Shown here: positions 33,515 to 46,636 of the stretch, one piece after another | How positions within the stretch are numbered: the first letter of the stretch is position 1 | How the letters are laid out: each line of letters opens with the position of its first letter | Notes under the pieces: model-generated | Told to the model about the DNA's origin: nothing | The model's database searches: none | Seen by the model: the letters and a program-made list of their open reading frames with translations, nothing else | Virus record (IMG/VR): IMGVR_UViG_3300037067_013676 | Span: 24,535 to 88,534 of that record | Length of the DNA: 64,000 bases | Strand: one strand, 5' to 3' | From: a virus | Lineage: Duplodnaviria > Caudoviricetes | Program-made: the position numbers and the translations under genes

Positions 33515-34006
33515 TTACTCCTTTCTTTTTTCTGCTATTAATTTAATTCCCCAGTTTTGGCATAAATCATCAAACAAACTCTGGGGGAATGATACCCCAC
33601 TAACTTCTTTTGTCCCAATTTTAATTATAGCACCACAAAATCTACCGCCATCAAAATTAGTATTTGCATAGGACACTTTGCTTACATCTGCATTAGAAAA
33701 ATTACAAAACTTAGCATCGCAATCTCTAATCCAAGATATACCTACAAATCTAGCACCTTCAAAATTACAGTGATTCATTTTGCAATGAATTAAACTAAAA
33801 GAAAGTTTGGCGTTTTCATCGCCTAATACACAATTAGAAAAATTACATCCAGATATATCTCTATCTCTAACATTAAGTTTCTTTATGATAGCTCTTGAAA
33901 GATTCACATTTCTTAAATCTACATTCTCCACTAATGAAGATATATCTAAACCATTTTTTATTGCTGTATCAATTTTAGTTTTAAGAATATTTGTATATGG
34001 TAGCAT
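33515..34006 (-). CDS. pentapeptide repeat protein
   Basis: VDLRN VNLSR..DISGC NFSNC..KMNHC NFEGA RFVG..DAKFC NFSNA DVSKV SYANT NFDGG. Confidence 0.85.
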   Translation of the reverse strand: MLPYTNILKTKIDTAIKNGLDISSLVENVDLRNVNLSRAIIKKLNVRDRDISGCNFSNCVLGDENAKLSFSLIHCKMNHCNFEGARFVGISWIRDCDAKFCNFSNADVSKVSYANTNFDGGRFCGAIIKIGTKEVSGVSFPQSLFDDLCQNWGIKLIAEKRKE

Positions 34007-34017
34007 TTTATTTCCTT

Positions 34018-34731
34018 TTATGAAGATGGATAGTTATATTGATTTAAATATTTAGTTTTTTTATGACATTTTTTGCATAATATTTGACCGCTATTTATAT
34101 TCCAGAAAGGTTCATATGTAGTGGCAAGTCTAAGTAAAGTTTCTTTATCTTCCATCGGACTGAATTGTGAATAAATACTTAAAAATTCATTAAATATAAT
34201 AATAAATTCTTTTATATGATGACATTCTATAGGTCTACCAATATGACCACATTCTTGGCAGGTATAGTTATCTCTTTTAAATATTTGATTTCTCCAAGTT
34301 TTATATTCTGGTAAATGTCTAATTGCTTTATAAAGAGGATATTTAACTTTAAAATTTTTCCAATTATAATTTTTATCACCTTTTCCTAAACCCAATCTAA
34401 TTCTTGTTTCACTTAGTTTTTTCCTATGTTCTGGAGATAATTTTTTATTTTTATTAGAAGACCAATATTTATTTTTTCTTATATATTTTCTTGAACAAGA
34501 AGGACATCGTGAAGCATATGAATTAGATAGTTTTTTACCACAATCAATACATATTGGATTTCTTCTATAAGTTTTATTTTTACTGATTTTATTCCTAGCT
34601 TTTATTTTATTACTACAAGACATACATCTAGTACTTCCTACACTTATTTCTTTCCCACAGTCTATACAATAATATTTTTTACAGTATTTACCATTTTTAT
34701 AATTAAAATTATCTTTGCCCTTTTTATACAT
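34018..34731 (-). CDS. free-standing HNH homing endonuclease (family B)
   Basis: RDNYTCQECG...IECHHIK...GQILCKKCH; repeated CIDCGK..CxxC modules. Confidence 0.87.
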   Translation of the reverse strand: MYKKGKDNFNYKNGKYCKKYYCIDCGKEISVGSTRCMSCSNKIKARNKISKNKTYRRNPICIDCGKKLSNSYASRCPSCSRKYIRKNKYWSSNKNKKLSPEHRKKLSETRIRLGLGKGDKNYNWKNFKVKYPLYKAIRHLPEYKTWRNQIFKRDNYTCQECGHIGRPIECHHIKEFIIIFNEFLSIYSQFSPMEDKETLLRLATTYEPFWNINSGQILCKKCHKKTKYLNQYNYPSS

Positions 34732-34739
34732 TTATTCTC

Positions 34740-36317
34740 CTAAGAAGATGGATAAAAACTTAACAAAATTGTGTAATAGCCGTTATTATCTTTTATCGAT
34801 TCACAAAAATAATTCCTATTTATATTTGTAAATTCGTCAACTACTCTTATTGTATCACCAACACTTAAATGTGGGGAATATAATACATCAACTTGTATTT
34901 TAGTATGGTTTTTAACAAATTCCTTCAAAAACTCTTTAGTTACATAGTCTAATTGTGTTTTACTATATAAAGTGTTATCATCTACTTTGTTTGCTTTATA
35001 TAATCTATCCCCTAACTTATGCTTTAACCCTTTATAATCGTAAAGAGTATTATCACCTTCAATTTCTTCAACTACCAAAGAATCTATGCTATGTGATTCA
35101 CTTAAACCACTTACTCCACTAAAAGAAGTTGATGTGGTATCTGTATAAGTAAATACATCAAAAGTTCCATCACTATTCTTTATGTAGGCAGTTTTTGAAG
35201 TTTCGCCAGAATCTAGTTCAAATCCTTCAGTAGAATCAACTAATATAGATGTTGGATATTCTCCAGATGTTAAAGCAGTTAAGTCTATAGCAGAAGATAA
35301 ATAGGTTACGGGTATAAGTTTAGCTTCAGATTTTATTATTATGTCATCGTACGCAGATATTTCAGTCAGAGCAACTACCCAAACTCCAGACTGTGTAGTA
35401 ATTATAGTTCCATTCGCAGTACCCGAATCTATAGTTCCATAATCAATTAACTGTTGTCTATTAGAATCACTTACAGTTACTTTTGTAGAACTATATTCTA
35501 TTTTTTCTACATTTTCCAATACTAATTTTAAATATCTAGCAGTAAATCCCACACCTAAATCACTTTCTTCAAAACTTTTAGAACTTCCACCATTTAAAGA
35601 AAAACTATTGGTTTTATCAGAAATTTCATAGTAATTACTTCCATCTGTGGAATATTGTATAGTAGCAGTAAAATTAATGTCAAATTTCCTATTTTCATCT
35701 GGTCTAAAAAATCCAGCAAGTATGTCAAGTGCTTGAATAGTTTTAACCGCCCCCAAATCTATTATAGCGTAATTATATCCAGTTGGAGGTTCGCCATAAA
35801 ATATAGTTTGAACTTGAGTGTCCCATCTACCATCTATAACAGCAGCTACATCGGTAAACACTGTTACTACACTGTAGTACTGATAAGTAGCTTTAACTGT
35901 AGCTTGTGCAGGAACTTTTATTAGTTTTTTAGCTATCTTAAATTCTGCTTTATCATAATCTATTATTAAATCATCTGTAGAATAAAATACATAATACGTT
36001 GCTGTAGCAACACTTTCTACATCTGTATTCTTTTCTGAACCTGGCACATTTAAAATTCCAGCACCATAATCCATAAATTCATAATATGGTGCTAAAGTGT
36101 AAACTTCCTCTCCAAAAGAATCATAAAATATAATAGATTTAGAAGGATCAATACTAGAATGGGCGAATTTTATCCTGTAGTATGTGTAGGTATGTGAAGT
36201 TACTTCCGTACCACCACCGCCACCCCTTATTCTATAAGAAACATTTATAATGGGATTTTTATGAGAATACCAAAATATAATCTCCCACAATAATAAAGAA
36301 AATAAAATAAATAACAC
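34740..36317 (-). CDS. tail/baseplate protein, downstream part (same frame as 36318..38126)
   Basis: Discoidin/F5-8-like segment (AVIDGRWDT...IIDLG...IQYSTDG..Y...ARYLKL); C-terminal SPHLSVGDTIRV typical of hub proteins; hydrophobic N-terminal 31 aa. Confidence 0.7.
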   Translation of the reverse strand: MLFILFSLLLWEIIFWYSHKNPIINVSYRIRGGGGGTEVTSHTYTYYRIKFAHSSIDPSKSIIFYDSFGEEVYTLAPYYEFMDYGAGILNVPGSEKNTDVESVATATYYVFYSTDDLIIDYDKAEFKIAKKLIKVPAQATVKATYQYYSVVTVFTDVAAVIDGRWDTQVQTIFYGEPPTGYNYAIIDLGAVKTIQALDILAGFFRPDENRKFDINFTATIQYSTDGSNYYEISDKTNSFSLNGGSSKSFEESDLGVGFTARYLKLVLENVEKIEYSSTKVTVSDSNRQQLIDYGTIDSGTANGTIITTQSGVWVVALTEISAYDDIIIKSEAKLIPVTYLSSAIDLTALTSGEYPTSILVDSTEGFELDSGETSKTAYIKNSDGTFDVFTYTDTTSTSFSGVSGLSESHSIDSLVVEEIEGDNTLYDYKGLKHKLGDRLYKANKVDDNTLYSKTQLDYVTKEFLKEFVKNHTKIQVDVLYSPHLSVGDTIRVVDEFTNINRNYFCESIKDNNGYYTILLSFYPSS

Positions 36318-38126
36318 TTATTTGCCCCCTCCACTCTTAGTTACGGTCGTGTTCGTAATTTCAATTGCGATCGCCTGCCCAGCTACTACATGTGAAGTAT
36401 TGTCTATTGCAACTTCATTTATATATATTGTGGGTTTCATAGTTTCTACCGTTATAGCTCCAATTCCAGAAACGGGCGACCCATAGACATAATAATTATC
36501 TTCTTCTCTTAAATTAGTTAATTCTGAAGCAGTTGCGGTTGCTTTATAAGATTCTCCAGTACCTACAAATGTAACTCCATCGCCATACATTAAATTAGTT
36601 GGATTTTTATTTTTTCCATAAAATACAGTTCTTGTATACAAGTCATCATCTTCCATGAACGTTAATGCAGTTGCTAATTTTAATGTATAATCTTCATTTA
36701 CTCTCTGTGAATAGTAATTAGCCCAAATTTTATTATTGCCTTTAGTTCTAACCAAAAAGTTGGGAGCGACATACTCTTTGACCTTTTTTAATGCTTCATA
36801 TCTATTCTCAACTTCTCTTGAACGAAAACTAATTCTATTTAGTGAAATACCAGAAGCTTGTAAAGTTTTGAAGAAATAATCCCTATTACATGTAATCAAT
36901 GATTGAGTGGAAATAGCATTTTCTATTATTATTCTACCATATCTTTTATCAACATAAACTAAACCTCCTCCATCATGTGGTATAGTAAAATCGCCTGAAA
37001 CTAAATCTGTTACAAGATTAGAAAAATAGAGGTACCAAACCCTACCTGCGGCATAACTATTAGTATATTCAAAATAACTACTTATTGCATGATTTTTTAA
37101 TGAATTATTACCTGTAGTTGGTATTCCTTGTAATGTAGTACCACTAATAGACGACCAAGTAAAAGTATCTCCATTAACATTACCTTCACCTGAAGTTGGC
37201 AGTCCTTCAACTGAATCTAAAGTTAAAGTACTATTTCCAGCGGTAAAAGCTGAAGATAATTGATGATATATAGTAATGTTTGTAGAAGTGTAGTTGGGCA
37301 CTAGGGTATCAATCGTAGTTCCCATTTCATCATAAAAAGCTGTGGTTAAATGATTGTCAATTACTTTTTGAGCATTAGATTCATTAAACATAAATTTCCC
37401 ATAGCCATCTGCGGCAGTGAGTATATCTTCTATTATGTCTTCTACATAAACGCCATGAACATAAAAAGAATAGGTGGCGACTAAATCATAATTATCTTTT
37501 GCATTTAAAACACTCCCAAGTTTTACTTGTCCATTCTCATACATCACAGTGTAACCGTCCCACTGTGGATCTTCTACATCAGTATTTTTATTCCTAATAA
37601 CTAAAATAGGTAAAGGATTATCTGCAATATTATTATTTGCAAAATTAAATACTTGTGCTAATGTATTGTTTGGTGAAGATAAATAATTTGGAGTTAATAC
37701 TTCTTCTACCACTTGTATTTTAGTGCCTTCTACTTCTAAGTCTATGTCAGTAAATTGAAGTTCAGATATAGCGTCTAGTCCAACAATAGTAACAGTTCTA
37801 TCTGTTGCAGATTCCCCAAAAGAACGTTGATTTACTTTTCCATAAAACTTTTTAAATTCTTTACTTGAACCTTCAAAATATTCACTAAATTCTATTACAT
37901 CACCAACTTCTATTTTACTAGCACCATTATCACCAAATATATTAGCATTATTATTTAACACAAAAGTAGCAGACATGGAACCAAAACTAATGTCACTACT
38001 CAATCCCCAACTAATTAAATAATCAGAAATGTCTACAGAATCTATCTTTAGAATAAATTTAACCTTTACATCTTTATTATTTAATTGATTTTCTATAGTT
38101 ACTGGTAGTAAAGTTTCTTTAGACAT
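36318..38126 (-). CDS. tail/baseplate hub-like protein, upstream part
   Basis: Follows the Dit-like gene; ATFVLNN...IEVGDVI...KFYGKVN...TIVGLDAISEL hub pattern. Confidence 0.72.
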   Translation of the reverse strand: MSKETLLPVTIENQLNNKDVKVKFILKIDSVDISDYLISWGLSSDISFGSMSATFVLNNNANIFGDNGASKIEVGDVIEFSEYFEGSSKEFKKFYGKVNQRSFGESATDRTVTIVGLDAISELQFTDIDLEVEGTKIQVVEEVLTPNYLSSPNNTLAQVFNFANNNIADNPLPILVIRNKNTDVEDPQWDGYTVMYENGQVKLGSVLNAKDNYDLVATYSFYVHGVYVEDIIEDILTAADGYGKFMFNESNAQKVIDNHLTTAFYDEMGTTIDTLVPNYTSTNITIYHQLSSAFTAGNSTLTLDSVEGLPTSGEGNVNGDTFTWSSISGTTLQGIPTTGNNSLKNHAISSYFEYTNSYAAGRVWYLYFSNLVTDLVSGDFTIPHDGGGLVYVDKRYGRIIIENAISTQSLITCNRDYFFKTLQASGISLNRISFRSREVENRYEALKKVKEYVAPNFLVRTKGNNKIWANYYSQRVNEDYTLKLATALTFMEDDDLYTRTVFYGKNKNPTNLMYGDGVTFVGTGESYKATATASELTNLREEDNYYVYGSPVSGIGAITVETMKPTIYINEVAIDNTSHVVAGQAIAIEITNTTVTKSGGGK

Positions 38127-38515
38127 TAAGAATCAGACTCCTTAAAAGTAACGGAAATGTCAAACATTGAAACATTGCCCGCAAACCAAATTCTTCTGTA
38201 ACTCATAAATCTTCCAAATATTGTTTGATTGTCATGAGTAACTATTTTTACTTTTTCGCCAAAATTTATATATTCTTCTATTTGATTTCTAAAAGCAGCA
38301 GTAGTATCAGCCCAGAAGAATTCTATAGAACCTTTATTTCTTCTTACTTCTGGAGTAACATAAGCTTCGCCACCATTAGCTAAAGTAATGGTTTGAATAG
38401 TAGAATTAATTTGTTTTTCTATATCACTATTTGGTCTTGGTAGAGAAGTATCTACCACCCAACTTATTCCATCCGACTCAATTGTGAACACTGTCCAATC
38501 ATAGGTTTTTGACAT
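38126..38515 (-). CDS. distal tail protein-like
   Basis: Small beta-rich gene immediately after the tape measure gene. Confidence 0.55.
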   Translation of the reverse strand: MSKTYDWTVFTIESDGISWVVDTSLPRPNSDIEKQINSTIQTITLANGGEAYVTPEVRRNKGSIEFFWADTTAAFRNQIEEYINFGEKVKIVTHDNQTIFGRFMSYRRIWFAGNVSMFDISVTFKESDS

Positions 38516-38527
38516 TGTTTATTCCTT

Positions 38528-41500
38528 TTACTCTACCGAAGCCATGCGACTTGAAATTGAAAATTCTTCATCAAGAGAACTTTTTGCTGAAAAATAAGAG
38601 CTGCTGGGAAGTATATACGTGCGAATATCAGTTCTGAGGGCTATTAGATTACGATTTACCAATTCTAACTGTTTATTTGTTACATTTATTTTAGAAGAAA
38701 TAGTATTAGTAGAAGTTCTACTTTCAGTTGAGGTTTTTTCCCCTCCACTACTAAACATAGTAAGAGCTAAACCAGCTGCAACAGCGGCTAAAGCAATCCA
38801 TCCAACTGGACCAATTGCAGCTAAACCAGCCCCAATACCACCCATTAAACTACCTCCACCAAGTCCAGCGGCAGCACCCCCCATAGAAGCTGCCATGGCA
38901 GCATTTGTAGCCATATATCCACCAAACCCAGCTCCAAAAGAACTTAAAGCTCCCATAGCTCCTAAAGCTCCAACTCCCATTAATCCTTGTCCAATAGCAC
39001 CTCGCTGATTTGATCCACTACTTCTAGCAGAAGAATAAGCAGAATATCCTAACATACCCCCTGCCATCATAGAATTTGCAGTTTGATTTTTTCCACTTAA
39101 AAGATTTCCCCAGAAACCTCCGCTAGTGTTAGGAGTAACAGTTCCAGTATCAGGATTATAAAATGCAGTTTGTCCAAGCGAACCAACGGTACTTTGAAAC
39201 ATTGGTTGTCCTTTTATTGTACTAGAAGTACCACTCCAACCAGCAATCCTAGCAGCTACACCACCTTTAGTTACATTTAATCCATCAACATGTCCTCTTT
39301 TAATTAAATCATACACTACTTTATGACCATTTTCAATTTGACCTTTAAGTCCCTGCATTGTTTCACCAAAAAACTCACCAAGACCAGTATCCCTGACTAA
39401 AAACTTGCCCATAGATTCTGCTATTGTGGTTCTAAAACTTTCTCCCATAGCATTAACTATACTGGTAAACACATTACCATCTTTACCAGATAATATATCT
39501 TTAAAGGTAGAAGTAGCAGCTGATTCTAATAAATCACTTTGTTCTTTAATTTTCTCAGCAATTTTTTCTTGTAATTCATAAACAAGTTTTAATTGTTCAT
39601 ATCTGGATTTTTCAGAACTTTGTAATAATTCATCAGTTTTATATTGTTCAATTTTCCATTTTAAAATTTGTTCTTCTGTATAACCGTTTAAACTTAACAT
39701 TTTAGCTTGATGATTAAGTAAAGTAGTACGTTCTTTTATATCTTCTTCAGCTTTTTTTTGTATTTCTTCAGCTTTTGTTATTAACTCCAATTCTTTCTCA
39801 GATAAACCAATAACAGCTAAACGGCTTTCTATTTCTTTATTAAATCTAGATTCTATTTTATCACGTATTTTTTCTAGATTTTCTATTTCTTTAGGAGCTT
39901 CTTCTTTATTATATTTACTAAGAGCAACCAACCAAGAATCTTTACCAACTGTTTTTCTTAAATTCATTAACTTAATTTCTATATTAGCTAAATCATTGCT
40001 TTCTTTAGTAAAATCTAATCTAACTTCTTCAGAGATTCTAGATTTTATAGCACCTTGCAAATCAAGTGGATCAAATGTTTTACCCCCAATAGCAGTATTA
40101 ATTTGTGAAAGAAATTTATTTATTTGTTCTTTCTGAGTTTCTGGAGCTTCCTGTAATTTTTTATTATATTTATCTCTGAGTTCTATTAATTTTTGTAATG
40201 ATATTAATTCGTTTTCCCTAGCCTGTTTTAATAGTAGGGCTTCAGTTAAACGTTCTTTTTCTTGATTTATTAAAGATTGGTTTTTATCTACAAAATAAGA
40301 AATTCCATCAGCAAGCCCCTTTAACATATCTATTGCATTTTTAAAAGGTGTTGTATCCCCAATAGTATTAACTAAAGAAATCCAACTGCTTTGCATTTGT
40401 TTCATTTTTATTGTTGTAGTATTCTGCATAATCTGGAAATCTCTATAAGCTTCCCCAGATGATTTTAAACTAGTTATTTCAGCGGATATAGCTTTTTTAT
40501 AATTTTGCATTAAAGCTATGAAAGGAGTTAATTGTCTTCTAGAACCAACTTGAGTAGCTAAAGTTATTTTTTGTGATTCATTTAAAGTATCCCATGATAA
40601 CGCCAAATCATCTATAACATCACTAGCAGATCTAAAAATATGAGTTGTTTCCATAACAGCTTTACCAGTTGCGGTTTGATAAATAGGAACTTTAGCGGTA
40701 ATCTGAATAGTTTCTTTAGCTACTGTCAACAAGCGAGAATAAATCATTTGTAAAGCGTTAGCAGCTTGGGATCCAGTTTTTCTTGTAACTTCTATTATAG
40801 CTGTAACATGTCCAAGAAATTTATCATATGAAATTCCCAATGCAGATGCAGAAGCTCCCGCTGTTTTAGTAGCCTCCGCCAAATCTTTTGAAGTTACAGC
40901 AAATTCTTTTTGAACTGCTTGCCATTTATCTACAATAGACAAACTACTGCTTATATGTAGATTATAAGCTTTAGTAGCTGCGGTTAAATCTTCACTAACT
41001 TCCACTATACTTTTACCAAGAATAACTGAAGCTATCATACTATTTCTAGTCATATTTATAGTTTCATTTATAGTAAGACCCTGTTGAGCAAATATTTTTG
41101 CCGCATTTAATGCTTCAGTTGCAGAAACACCAAACATTTTACTCATAGTTAATAAAGAAGAACCTAAATTTTTATATTCTTCCTCCGTACCTTTTCCAAC
41201 TATTCTAATTTGAGCCATTGCTGTTTCAAATTCTATTAAAAATTTAACACTGCCAGAAATACCATTTATTAAACCCATAAAAACACTTCTAAGAGCCATC
41301 CAGATAGGAATAACCGCAATAGCTCTCATTGCAAGTTTAGATTGTGTAGCTAATAAAGAACCATGACTTTTATCTAATTTATTTACATCTAATACTGATT
41401 TTTGATAAGTTAACTGTAAGTTAGTTAGAGCTTTTCTATAAGAACCAACTGTCATACTGCCACTAGCAAAATTTTTCTGTATGTTAGCTAAAGAAGCTTC

Positions 41501-41764
41501 ATAAGATTTGCCTATTTGTGCTGATACCTGACCTTCAGCAGTTGCTTTAGTTATATAACCATATCTTCCAGAAGGCTGATAACCCATATAACTAGTTGAA
41601 GCAGTTTGAACAGTACTGCCTCTATGAAAAGCCTTAACTCCAAGAGCTTCTCGTGCTTGTGCTTGGAATCTACCTAAATCAGCTCTAGCCTGTTCTAATC
41701 CTTTATTTTTATATTCAGTGACAAAATTAATTACATAATTTAATTGTTCAGTATTTGCTGGCAT
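38528..41764 (-). CDS. tape measure protein
   Basis: 1078 aa, helical; TP901-like core (FETAMAQIR...MFGVSATEAL...DKWQAV..EFAVTSKDLAEA...GHVTA..EVTR.TGSQAANAL); Gly/Ala-rich hydrophobic C-terminus. Confidence 0.92.
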   Translation of the reverse strand: MPANTEQLNYVINFVTEYKNKGLEQARADLGRFQAQAREALGVKAFHRGSTVQTASTSYMGYQPSGRYGYITKATAEGQVSAQIGKSYEASLANIQKNFASGSMTVGSYRKALTNLQLTYQKSVLDVNKLDKSHGSLLATQSKLAMRAIAVIPIWMALRSVFMGLINGISGSVKFLIEFETAMAQIRIVGKGTEEEYKNLGSSLLTMSKMFGVSATEALNAAKIFAQQGLTINETINMTRNSMIASVILGKSIVEVSEDLTAATKAYNLHISSSLSIVDKWQAVQKEFAVTSKDLAEATKTAGASASALGISYDKFLGHVTAIIEVTRKTGSQAANALQMIYSRLLTVAKETIQITAKVPIYQTATGKAVMETTHIFRSASDVIDDLALSWDTLNESQKITLATQVGSRRQLTPFIALMQNYKKAISAEITSLKSSGEAYRDFQIMQNTTTIKMKQMQSSWISLVNTIGDTTPFKNAIDMLKGLADGISYFVDKNQSLINQEKERLTEALLLKQARENELISLQKLIELRDKYNKKLQEAPETQKEQINKFLSQINTAIGGKTFDPLDLQGAIKSRISEEVRLDFTKESNDLANIEIKLMNLRKTVGKDSWLVALSKYNKEEAPKEIENLEKIRDKIESRFNKEIESRLAVIGLSEKELELITKAEEIQKKAEEDIKERTTLLNHQAKMLSLNGYTEEQILKWKIEQYKTDELLQSSEKSRYEQLKLVYELQEKIAEKIKEQSDLLESAATSTFKDILSGKDGNVFTSIVNAMGESFRTTIAESMGKFLVRDTGLGEFFGETMQGLKGQIENGHKVVYDLIKRGHVDGLNVTKGGVAARIAGWSGTSSTIKGQPMFQSTVGSLGQTAFYNPDTGTVTPNTSGGFWGNLLSGKNQTANSMMAGGMLGYSAYSSARSSGSNQRGAIGQGLMGVGALGAMGALSSFGAGFGGYMATNAAMAASMGGAAAGLGGGSLMGGIGAGLAAIGPVGWIALAAVAAGLALTMFSSGGEKTSTESRTSTNTISSKINVTNKQLELVNRNLIALRTDIRTYILPSSSYFSAKSSLDEEFSISSRMASVE

Positions 41765-45549: not shown

Positions 45550-45951
45550 TTATTCGTTTTTCCTTAATACCACTCTTAGTAATCTGAATGGTCTTTTTGT
45601 TATTAAAGCACGCTTACCCGTAGCTTCTCTAAAAATACTGTAGTCTTTACTATCTATTACTATTCTATTACAATTTCTAAAATAATCTTCGTACTTATCT
45701 TCCACCAAAATTTCCACCAAACCCTGTTCACTAAGTCCATACTGCTTATATATTAATTTGGTGCTATCCACTTCACGTACATATCCACGTATTGTATGAG
45801 AATTCAAATTAGTATATGTGTAATTTTGTTCCTCTGAATCAAAATCTTCACCAATTTGTTTTTGTGCAAAATAAACGTTTATTTTTGTTGCAATATAGCT
45901 ATGGCTTAATAAATCACTTATAAATTTATTTTTTTTATGAATATTAATCAT
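45550..45951 (-). CDS. head closure/stopper-like protein
   Basis: IRGYVRE...KQYGL.EQG.VEILV...IVID.KDY.I; position. Confidence 0.6.
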   Translation of the reverse strand: MINIHKKNKFISDLLSHSYIATKINVYFAQKQIGEDFDSEEQNYTYTNLNSHTIRGYVREVDSTKLIYKQYGLSEQGLVEILVEDKYEDYFRNCNRIVIDSKDYSIFREATGKRALITKRPFRLLRVVLRKNE

Positions 45952-46636
45952 AAATTAAACTCCAAGTTTGTTTTTTAAGTTTATAATGGCATTTTTTACA
46001 TAGTGTTTGACCATTATTTATATCCCAAAAAGATTTGTATGTAATAGCAAGTCTTATAAGAGTTTCTTTGTCTTCAAGAGGCGAAAACTGTGAATAACTT
46101 TGTAAAAAATTGTCTAGTAATTTAGCAAATGGAATCTTATGATGACACTCTAAATTACCACCTTTAGCATCACCACATTCTTGGCAAGTGTAGTTATCTC
46201 TTTTATAAACTTGGTTTCTCCATTGTTTAAATTCATTTAAGGTTTTTATTAGTTGACCTAAAGAAGTCTTCCAATTTTTAAAATTTGGATTTAATTCGCC
46301 ATTTCTCTTAATCCCAAACATAGGATTTTTTTCTCCATCATATTCACCTCTATGAGCTTTGCAAGCACAACATTGACAGTTTGGCTTATGAATAGTGATT
46401 CTTATTTTAGCATTATAAATATTACTACATTTAACACACCTTTTAGACATATACCCAACTTCTTTTCCACAGTTTACACAGTAATGTTTTTTTAATGTTT
46501 CTCCGTGTTTTAAAGAACTAATTTTTCTTGCACAACTATTACACCTTTTATGTCTATAATAATAAGCATTTCTAGATAATTGTTTTCCACAATCCATACA
46601 ATAAATTATTTTACTTTTTTTGTGTATATTAAGCAT
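45944..46636 (-). CDS. free-standing HNH homing endonuclease (family B)
   Basis: RDNYTCQECG..GGNLECHHK...WDINNGQTLCKKCH. Confidence 0.87.
   Translation of the reverse strand: MLNIHKKSKIIYCMDCGKQLSRNAYYYRHKRCNSCARKISSLKHGETLKKHYCVNCGKEVGYMSKRCVKCSNIYNAKIRITIHKPNCQCCACKAHRGEYDGEKNPMFGIKRNGELNPNFKNWKTSLGQLIKTLNEFKQWRNQVYKRDNYTCQECGDAKGGNLECHHKIPFAKLLDNFLQSYSQFSPLEDKETLIRLAITYKSFWDINNGQTLCKKCHYKLKKQTWSLIYD

Follow-up and report, generated by a model that had tools for sequence, protein, structure and literature searches.

The window analysed here, a 64,000-nucleotide (nt) stretch of IMG/VR record IMGVR_UViG_3300037067_013676 (a viral contig of 88.5 kb with 30% G+C), carries on its minus strand a tail-tip gene that is interrupted by a single stop codon. 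The first open reading frame (ORF1) ends in TAA and the second (ORF2) continues in the same frame, with a 96-nt insert, consisting of the TAA and 31 codons, between two runs of glycine codons. Is this one gene, whose halves are joined during expression, or are these two genes? A first-pass annotation of the sequence had placed four possibilities side by side, namely translational bypass as in T4 gene 60, stop codon read-through, a tiny intron, and a separate gene that starts at GTG 36317. Our analysis indicates that, very probably, two ordinary, translationally coupled genes together replace a single tail hub (Tal-like) gene. The features of the junction are as follows, in window coordinates.

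36318..38126, minus strand: ORF1, N-terminal half of the tail hub (Tal-like), 602 residues; gp27-like fold in an AlphaFold model with a predicted local distance difference test score (pLDDT) of 78
36325..36332, minus strand: Shine-Dalgarno (SD)-like GGAGGGGG, built from the last Gly codons of ORF1, 7-10 nt 5' of the GTG; read in the sequence
36318..36320, minus strand: TAA stop of ORF1; from sequence and translation, and reproduced in contigs from two studies
36225..36317, minus strand: GTG start and 31-codon leader of ORF2, predicted as a single hydrophobic alpha-helix; from the model and homologous leaders
36210..36224, minus strand: run of five Gly from the leader to the ORF2 body, predicted to be disordered; from the sequence, and residues 25-39 have pLDDT below 50
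34740..36317, minus strand: ORF2, C-terminal half of the tail hub, 525 residues including the leader; 73 stand-alone homologues, and C-terminal part of fused relatives

The interrupted hub gene of the window

Every element of the junction that had been described in the first-pass annotation was borne out by the sequence and its translation. On the minus strand, ORF1 ends in Ser, three Gly and Lys, followed by TAA (36320-36318), and a GTG codon (36317-36315) abuts this stop with no spacer and in the frame of ORF1. Removal of 36225-36320 would fuse both Gly runs in frame. The insert was AT-rich, as described, with 20.8% G+C as compared to a mean of 31% for 96-nt segments across both ORFs, and it stood at the 0.6th percentile of such segments of ORF1 and ORF2. 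No 17-mer in either protein is more hydrophobic than one within the 31 residues that it encodes (Kyte-Doolittle 2.08). Shuffled copies of the insert were open in frame just 5% of the time. TAA terminates 48 of the 64 long ORFs in the window, and reassignment of this codon was rejected on that ground. Abutting or overlapping gene pairs are common in this genome.

Fused and split forms of the hub among relatives

A HMMER search of 1.84 billion cluster representatives, with the read-through translation of ORF1 and ORF2 as the query, returned 210 matches. The best 150 of these were classified by two anchors, one of 53 residues from the end of ORF1 and one of 60 residues from the start of the ORF2 core, which were placed by pairwise alignment, protein by protein. 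Both anchors were carried in one chain by 36 of the 150. These fused relatives are proteins of 1000-1400 residues, and the ORF2 sequence corresponds to their C-terminal part. In 34 of them, the anchors are joined by a short linker with no hydrophobic segment, which in several of these proteins consists of GGGK and then a few Ser, Lys or Thr residues; the remaining two have an insert of ~160 residues. The same 150 included 12 N-terminal halves that stop at the break, all of them with a terminal Lys, and 8 C-terminal halves that begin near it. A separate search with ORF2 as the query yielded 73 stand-alone homologous C-terminal halves. No matches were found in the GenBank phage collection, either by blastn with the DNA or by tblastn with the protein.

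The fused relative P0008 (locus L014, 1098 residues) lies in the order tape measure gene, 129-residue gene, hub gene, pentapeptide-repeat gene. Because the gene order at L014 is identical, the fused form is orthologous to ORF1 plus ORF2. Judged from their sequences, most relatives appear to make the hub as one chain of ~1100 residues, and the expectation that homologues would be single proteins of about this length with a contiguous Gly-rich linker was thus correct for most of the family.

Ten junctions between split halves, the window included, were read at the DNA level. All ten showed two genes, with the stop of ORF1 followed by a start that belongs to ORF2 itself, in the following layouts.

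L003 (77% identical): ATGA overlap
L004, L008, L009, L012 and the P0160 contig: 1-nt overlap, TAATG
L011 and the P0200 contig: 4-nt overlap
L013: 2-nt gap
Window only: in frame, no spacer

At nine of the ten junctions, ORF2 was in another frame than ORF1, and the in-frame arrangement without spacer was found in the window only. Since only this one junction is in frame, conserved read-through could be disposed of. The last Gly codons of ORF1 (GGA GGN) form an SD-like sequence that lies 4-10 nt 5' of the ORF2 start at the junctions read, for example at L003, L004, L008 and L009. As far as it can be read from the DNA, the layout is that of classic translational coupling. In the window, translation of ORF1 would end at TAA 36320-36318, and ORF2 would be started at the abutting GTG by way of GGAGGGGG. 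Thus, the possibility of a separate gene that starts at GTG 36317, uses GGAGG and gives a leader-bearing tail protein agrees both with the ten two-gene junctions and with the conserved leader described below.

The leader of ORF2 is conserved as protein

A homologous leader of 28-34 residues opens ORF2 in at least 24 clusters, whose cores are 42-77% identical to that of the window. Two genes with the same hydrophobic N-terminus in the second, an arrangement that speaks against recoding, were therefore found in at least 24 clusters. The leaders share a pattern of Met, an immediate hydrophobic stretch, Ser, a Trp that is present in all 25 aligned leaders, and Arg right before the Gly run, often with Lys/His-x-Pro and Val-Pro as well. 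Changes from leader to leader are conservative hydrophobic replacements, and all insertions and deletions are in frame. In the AlphaFold model of ORF2 (pLDDT 78), leader residues 2-20 form a single helix with pLDDT 85 and the Gly run is disordered; a Gly run stands ahead of the conserved core in nearly all split C-terminal halves. In these alignments, the invariant Trp and the retention of a hydrophobic helix suggest that selection acts on the protein. The 31 codons of the insert would accordingly be translated as an N-terminal extension of ORF2, a hydrophobic helix on a flexible tether of five Gly.

When 25 leaders were inspected by eye for the hallmarks of a Sec or lipoprotein signal peptide, they showed no basic n-region and no conserved AxA, and a Cys before the Trp was present in some of them only. 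A lipoprotein signal was rejected, as the leader Cys is not conserved. The leader is missing from P0153, which is 90% identical to ORF2 of the window. Because leaderless split alleles, presumed functional, exist, the leader is not essential to the protein.

Our best guess for the role of the leader is a structural one. In a hub trimer, the three leaders would pack into a hydrophobic bundle at the axis of the hub, where they would dock or plug the C-terminal half and perhaps insert into the host membrane at infection. Ranked after this role, the leader could be a tolerated relic of an earlier mobile insertion, and, in the third place, it might serve as a spacer that parts the halves of an endonuclease target.

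Other explanations of the junction

Reading of TAA 36320-36318 as a sense codon would give a fused hub of 1128 residues with the hydrophobic segment in the middle of the protein. The common frame of both ORFs without a spacer in the window fits such read-through, as does the fact that fused proteins are the majority form of the family. However, the in-frame layout is not conserved, being confined to one of ten junctions; TAA is the commonest genuine stop of the window; the short linkers of fused relatives contain no hydrophobic segment; and no stimulatory structure was evident, since the junction region folds with a minimum free energy of -27.6 kcal/mol and a z-score of -1.04 against shuffles, at which a short hairpin could still exist. 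We consider read-through highly improbable. Bypass of the T4 gene 60 type would take off from AAA 36323-36321, land on AAA 36260-36258 and skip 60 nt. It would make sense of a Lys codon with an immediate stop, of a matching AAA 60 nt further 3' and of the AT-rich gap between them, and relatives have homing endonucleases at this site, an association that the gene 60 cassette shares (bioRxiv 10.1101/2022.08.31.505936). Yet the stretch to be skipped is the best-conserved part of the leader, with the invariant Trp, and the leader always opens with a start codon that overlaps or abuts the ORF1 stop. The match of AAA to AAA is not conserved, as the leaders of P0196 and P0215 (L009) lack any Lys landing codon, leaderless split alleles have nothing to bypass, and the fold is no stabler than that of shuffled sequences. 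Bypass, with its gap conserved as protein, is extremely unlikely.

That the 96 nt are a non-coding spacer, or the remnant of a tiny intron or intein, with the start of ORF2 elsewhere, would fit their unusual AT-richness, and T-rich DNA yields hydrophobic residues by default. We judge this very unlikely. From the leader to the conserved core there is no in-frame ATG or GTG, and the sole alternative start is TTG at codon 10. The stretch is open and alignable as protein in at least 24 clusters, a state in which shuffled copies were rarely found. A scan of 35900-36700 against Rfam at its E-value threshold gave no family, the one match being a chance snoRNA match outside the insert, and 96 nt are far short of the size of a group I or group II intron; this is too short for a self-splicing intron, and a tiny intron is not supported either. 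The window insert has no Hint blocks. A split intein was rejected because the GGGK of ORF1 is not followed by an N-terminal intein fragment (IntN) and the leader does not end in His-Asn. An error of sequencing or assembly, with the TAA or the insert artefactual and the gene continuous, might be suspected because the source is a single metagenomic contig, and a check of the reads had been proposed. It has a practically negligible probability: among assembled Logan contigs from two studies, one of whose two runs is possibly the source sample, a groundwater contig that spans 35925-36407 had one difference, away from the junction, and zero gaps, and a landfill contig that spans 35900-36334 had zero differences, so that both are unchanged at the TAA. 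In addition, P0152, on another contig, is a 525-residue protein identical to ORF2, and dozens of relatives have the same architecture.

Content of the break point

The interval between the GGGK of the N-terminal half and the Gly run of the C-terminal half was found with at least five kinds of filling.

Hydrophobic leader: 24 clusters
None (Met-Gly-Gly...): 15 clusters, P0153 among them
Short basic or Cys-rich peptides: 21 clusters; a catch-all class that includes a few leader-like, near-empty, truncated and Hint-bearing entries
HExxH module of ~80 residues: 8 clusters
Hint-like domain of ~155 residues: P0002, P0004 and P0207

Endonuclease genes were observed directly at this point. L005, with an ORF2 90% identical to that of the window, has a gene of 319 residues exactly at the break, whose product has three NUMOD3 motifs (E 1e-8) and is rich in Cys and His at its C-terminus, and L007 has there, again exactly at the break, a DUF559/Vsr-like gene of 270 residues with a NUMOD3 motif. 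These two are the closest leaderless relatives. At L010, an ORF of 55 residues (2231-2398) resembles the N-terminus of the 270-residue gene of L007, and the DNA beyond it still resembles the 3' end of that gene, so that the L010 ORF is the remnant of an endonuclease gene that is decaying at this site. In the window, the break itself is free of endonuclease genes, and an HNH gene lies directly after ORF2 instead. Leader-like peptides were sought in every frame of the endonuclease inserts of L005, L007 and L010, and the best score was 38 as compared to a shuffle maximum of 41.

The HExxH module (~80-131 residues) precedes the Gly run in P0171, P0176, P0180, P0182, P0185, P0191, P0205 and P0208, and it is also found at L010 2501-2740. 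It has a conserved, metalloprotease-like Trp-x-x-His-Glu-x-x-His-Lys and no Pfam match. The Hint-like insert occupies residues ~1133-1285 of P0002 and ~774-929 of P0004 (locus L015) and is likewise at the break in P0207; no Hint sequence is present in the window. A Cys directly after GGGK opens this insert, which contains intein-like block A and block B motifs, and the Pfam Hint match of P0004 is weak (E 0.11). Splicing is doubtful because the insert lacks a terminal His-Asn and ~45 extra, Cys-rich residues stand ahead of the Gly run. The insert may instead cleave itself. P0002 (1726 residues) has in its hub half, at residues 334-532, an insert with LAGLIDADG and intein-splicing domains (LAGLIDADG_3, E 3e-7), and thus bears two selfish inserts within one tail gene.

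On a tree of the ORF2 core (FastTree, 68 rows, Shimodaira-Hasegawa (SH)-like support only), presence of the leader had to change state 19 times, and well-supported branches forced at least 10 of these changes; shuffled labels required 20.0. The distribution of the leader is thus no more clustered on this tree than expected by chance, and the content of the junction is replaced independently of the gene next to it, which is what a homing site would lead one to expect. On both sides of the junction, over the final ~90 nt of ORF1 and the initial ~90 nt of the ORF2 core, nucleotide identity to L005, L007 and L003 is reduced, to 71-74% as compared to ~86% overall for L005. The dip fits co-conversion or a relaxed linker, and we did not use it as evidence.

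Comparison with genes in pieces and a model for the split

Free-standing homing endonucleases are known to split phage genes, as mobE does in nrdA of Aeh1 and mobA in the T4 topoisomerase genes 39/60; gene 43 is split in phage 25, with a seg gene at gene 43, and the pieces of split genes of T4-like phages reassemble into active enzymes (PMC2988022). A survey of mobA described repeated insertion at one location, loss of the endonuclease while the split stays, replacement by Vsr-like or GIY-YIG endonucleases, and the gain of conserved N- and C-terminal extension tails by the split products (bioRxiv 10.1101/2022.08.31.505936). All features of that survey have counterparts here, and the T4-like genes in pieces at homing endonuclease sites would by analogy be the closest parallel. 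In both cases, one constant site divides a gene that relatives carry whole, some genomes have an endonuclease gene precisely at this site and others have none or a decayed one, HNH/NUMOD3-type and Vsr-like families occupy the same site, the downstream half gains an N-terminal extension, and the halves are presumed to reassemble. In contrast to those genes, the target here is a virion tail hub gene and not an enzyme of nucleotide metabolism, the cut lies in a flexible Gly linker between domains and does not interrupt a catalytic core, ORF1 is not extended at its C-terminus, and the variety of fillings is larger, with at least five alternatives. The leader here is also hydrophobic and is never seen beside an endonuclease gene, and there is no bypass. 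The 50-nt bypass cassette of T4 gene 60 resembles the window insert in the stop right after the last sense codon, the AT-richness, the matching codon downstream and the setting at a homing endonuclease target site. Unlike the cassette, the insert has a start codon of its own, from which it would be translated, and its conservation is at the level of protein; relatives do not keep the matching codon, a significant take-off hairpin is absent and the frame relation varies among relatives.

The break sits in the Gly-rich linker between domains, which is continuous in most relatives, and selfish elements, comprising at least two families of free-standing homing endonucleases and a Hint-like domain, land there recurrently. 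Such elements most likely created the split in a hit-and-run manner. The two products would then reassemble non-covalently in the tail tip, like split NrdA and the T4 topoisomerase, a step that is suggested by this analogy and by the existence of fused orthologues. Several points weigh against this account of two coupled genes. Initiation at the GTG, coupled translation and the joining of the halves are all inferred; no RNA run was among the sequencing runs listed for the stretch; the in-frame TAA of the window leaves room for a read-through product at a low level; the leaderless alleles weaken any structural role for the leader; L005 and L007, which have an endonuclease gene at the break, lack the leader, and no element was caught delivering it; and the ORF2 tree was made by FastTree with SH-like support alone.

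It is also conceivable, although rather unlikely in our estimate, that the break is a true cassette site, in which the hydrophobic helix is one of several exchangeable modules under selection that move between phages independently of the flanking gene, the others being the HExxH module of ~80 residues, the Hint-like domain and the Cys-rich peptides. In one version of this idea, the module would be a Gly-tethered, membrane-active helix at the tail tip, present in three copies at the hub axis and inserting in the host envelope on infection. In the other version, it would be a protein-coding counterpart of the T4 gene 60 cassette, which splits the endonuclease target and shields the genome from cleavage.

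With two coupled genes as the preferred reading, a false lead is removed, as the locus offers no new case of bypass, read-through or mini-intron. For annotation, ORF1 and ORF2 are best kept separate, with the GTG start retained. A structural virion gene would join the short list of phage genes in pieces at homing endonuclease sites, where the published cases are enzymes (ribonucleotide reductase, topoisomerase and DNA polymerase). With dozens of variants at one linker, in which fused, split, intein-like and endonuclease-occupied states occur together, the family serves as a natural experiment in the tolerance of a multidomain tail protein to cutting. In the split form with a leader, a conserved, Gly-tethered hydrophobic helix opens a subunit with a putative receptor-binding role at the tail tip.

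The tail hub and its neighbours

Tal or baseplate hubs of long-tailed phages, such as T4 gp27, Mu gp44, T5 pb3 and the Tal of the SPP1 gp21 type, are encoded downstream of a tape measure gene and one small tail gene, and they combine a gp27-like N-terminal part with a C-terminal extension that has a carbohydrate-binding module. The corresponding region of the window contains the following features.

38528..41764, minus strand: tape measure protein, 1078 residues; PF10145 PhageMin_Tail, E 6e-22, and PHROG tape measure families, E 1e-58
38126..38515, minus strand: conserved gene of 129 residues in the interval between tape measure and hub; no Pfam or PHROG match
35337..35864, minus strand: CBM32/discoidin (F5/8 type C) domain, ORF2 residues 152-327; structure match and near-threshold Pfam match
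34018..34731, minus strand: HNH-type endonuclease, free-standing, flanked by ORF2 and the pentapeptide gene; PHROG HNH families, E 7e-9
33515..34006, minus strand: pentapeptide-repeat protein, ~160 residues; PF00805, E 5e-11

A tape measure gene is at the equivalent position in L008, L009, L014 and L015, and a gene of 124-129 residues is at the equivalent place in L003, L004, L005, L007, L008, L009, L012 and L014. From gene position alone, the product of the 129-residue gene is probably a small distal tail protein. The ORF1 model aligned over 170-200 residues, with VIA-align Z-scores of 10-13, to the HFTV1 tail hub, Mu gp44, T4 gp27, VgrG spikes and the hubs of contractile injection systems (Z 12.9 for 9h4p_BD, 11.0 for 3cdd_E, 10.4 for 1wru and 10.1 for 1k28_D). 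The score against T5 pb3 (7zhj_b) was 8.4, and with this chain included the alignments covered 170-215 residues. In ORF2, the predicted domain matched the CBM32 structure 2w1q_A with Z 11.2 and a root mean square deviation of 2.6 over 116 aligned residues, many further CBM32 structures were matched, and PF00754 gave E 1.6e-5, slightly short of the Pfam cut-off. This domain, which rests on modelled structure, probably binds a glycan of the host surface. Because of the ORF1 fold, the CBM32 domain of ORF2 and the position after the tape measure gene, ORF1 plus ORF2 can be assigned, with the models as a guide, to a Tal-like hub protein with a C-terminal glycan-binding extension.

Gene position, the gp27-like N-terminal fold and the carbohydrate-binding C-terminal extension are thus shared with Tal hubs; unlike them, the hub here has no match to a solved hub at the sequence level, is predicted to consist of two chains and has a C-terminal half that opens with a hydrophobic helix. 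Searches of PDB chain sequences, with single proteins and with profiles, found nothing beyond a marginal CBM32 match, and PHROGs held no family for ORF1, ORF2 or most of the adjacent structural genes. A kinship with tail proteins of the gene transfer agent (GTA) type had been suggested in the first-pass annotation. It was not confirmed by sequence: Phage-tail_3 and related Pfam families of the GTA and lambda J-type tail tip gave no match in ORF1, ORF2 or six relatives, and profile searches of PDB sequences, in which RcGTA virion chains were sought, returned nothing but CBM32. The sole structural link to a GTA was a fold match to chain 6tba_7A over residues 1-126, with Z 8.0.

A pentapeptide-repeat gene lies downstream of the hub in all related loci, and a conserved gene of this kind is an unusual component for a tail-tip module. 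It follows the hub directly in L003, L004, L005, L008, L009 and L014, which have no HNH gene at that place. The HNH gene of the window (34018-34731), which has a double zinc ribbon, looks like another recent insertion of a homing endonuclease beside the hub gene. A second HNH gene is found within the structural block at 45944-46636, minus strand (PHROG HNH families, E 2e-10), and the genome appears to be rich in free-standing endonuclease genes. An anaerobic subsurface organism is suggested as the host. The relative P0208 is filed under a metagenome-assembled genome of Candidatus Omnitrophota, and the region 35900-36700 or close relatives of it occur in Logan contigs from groundwater and landfill metagenomes of several studies.

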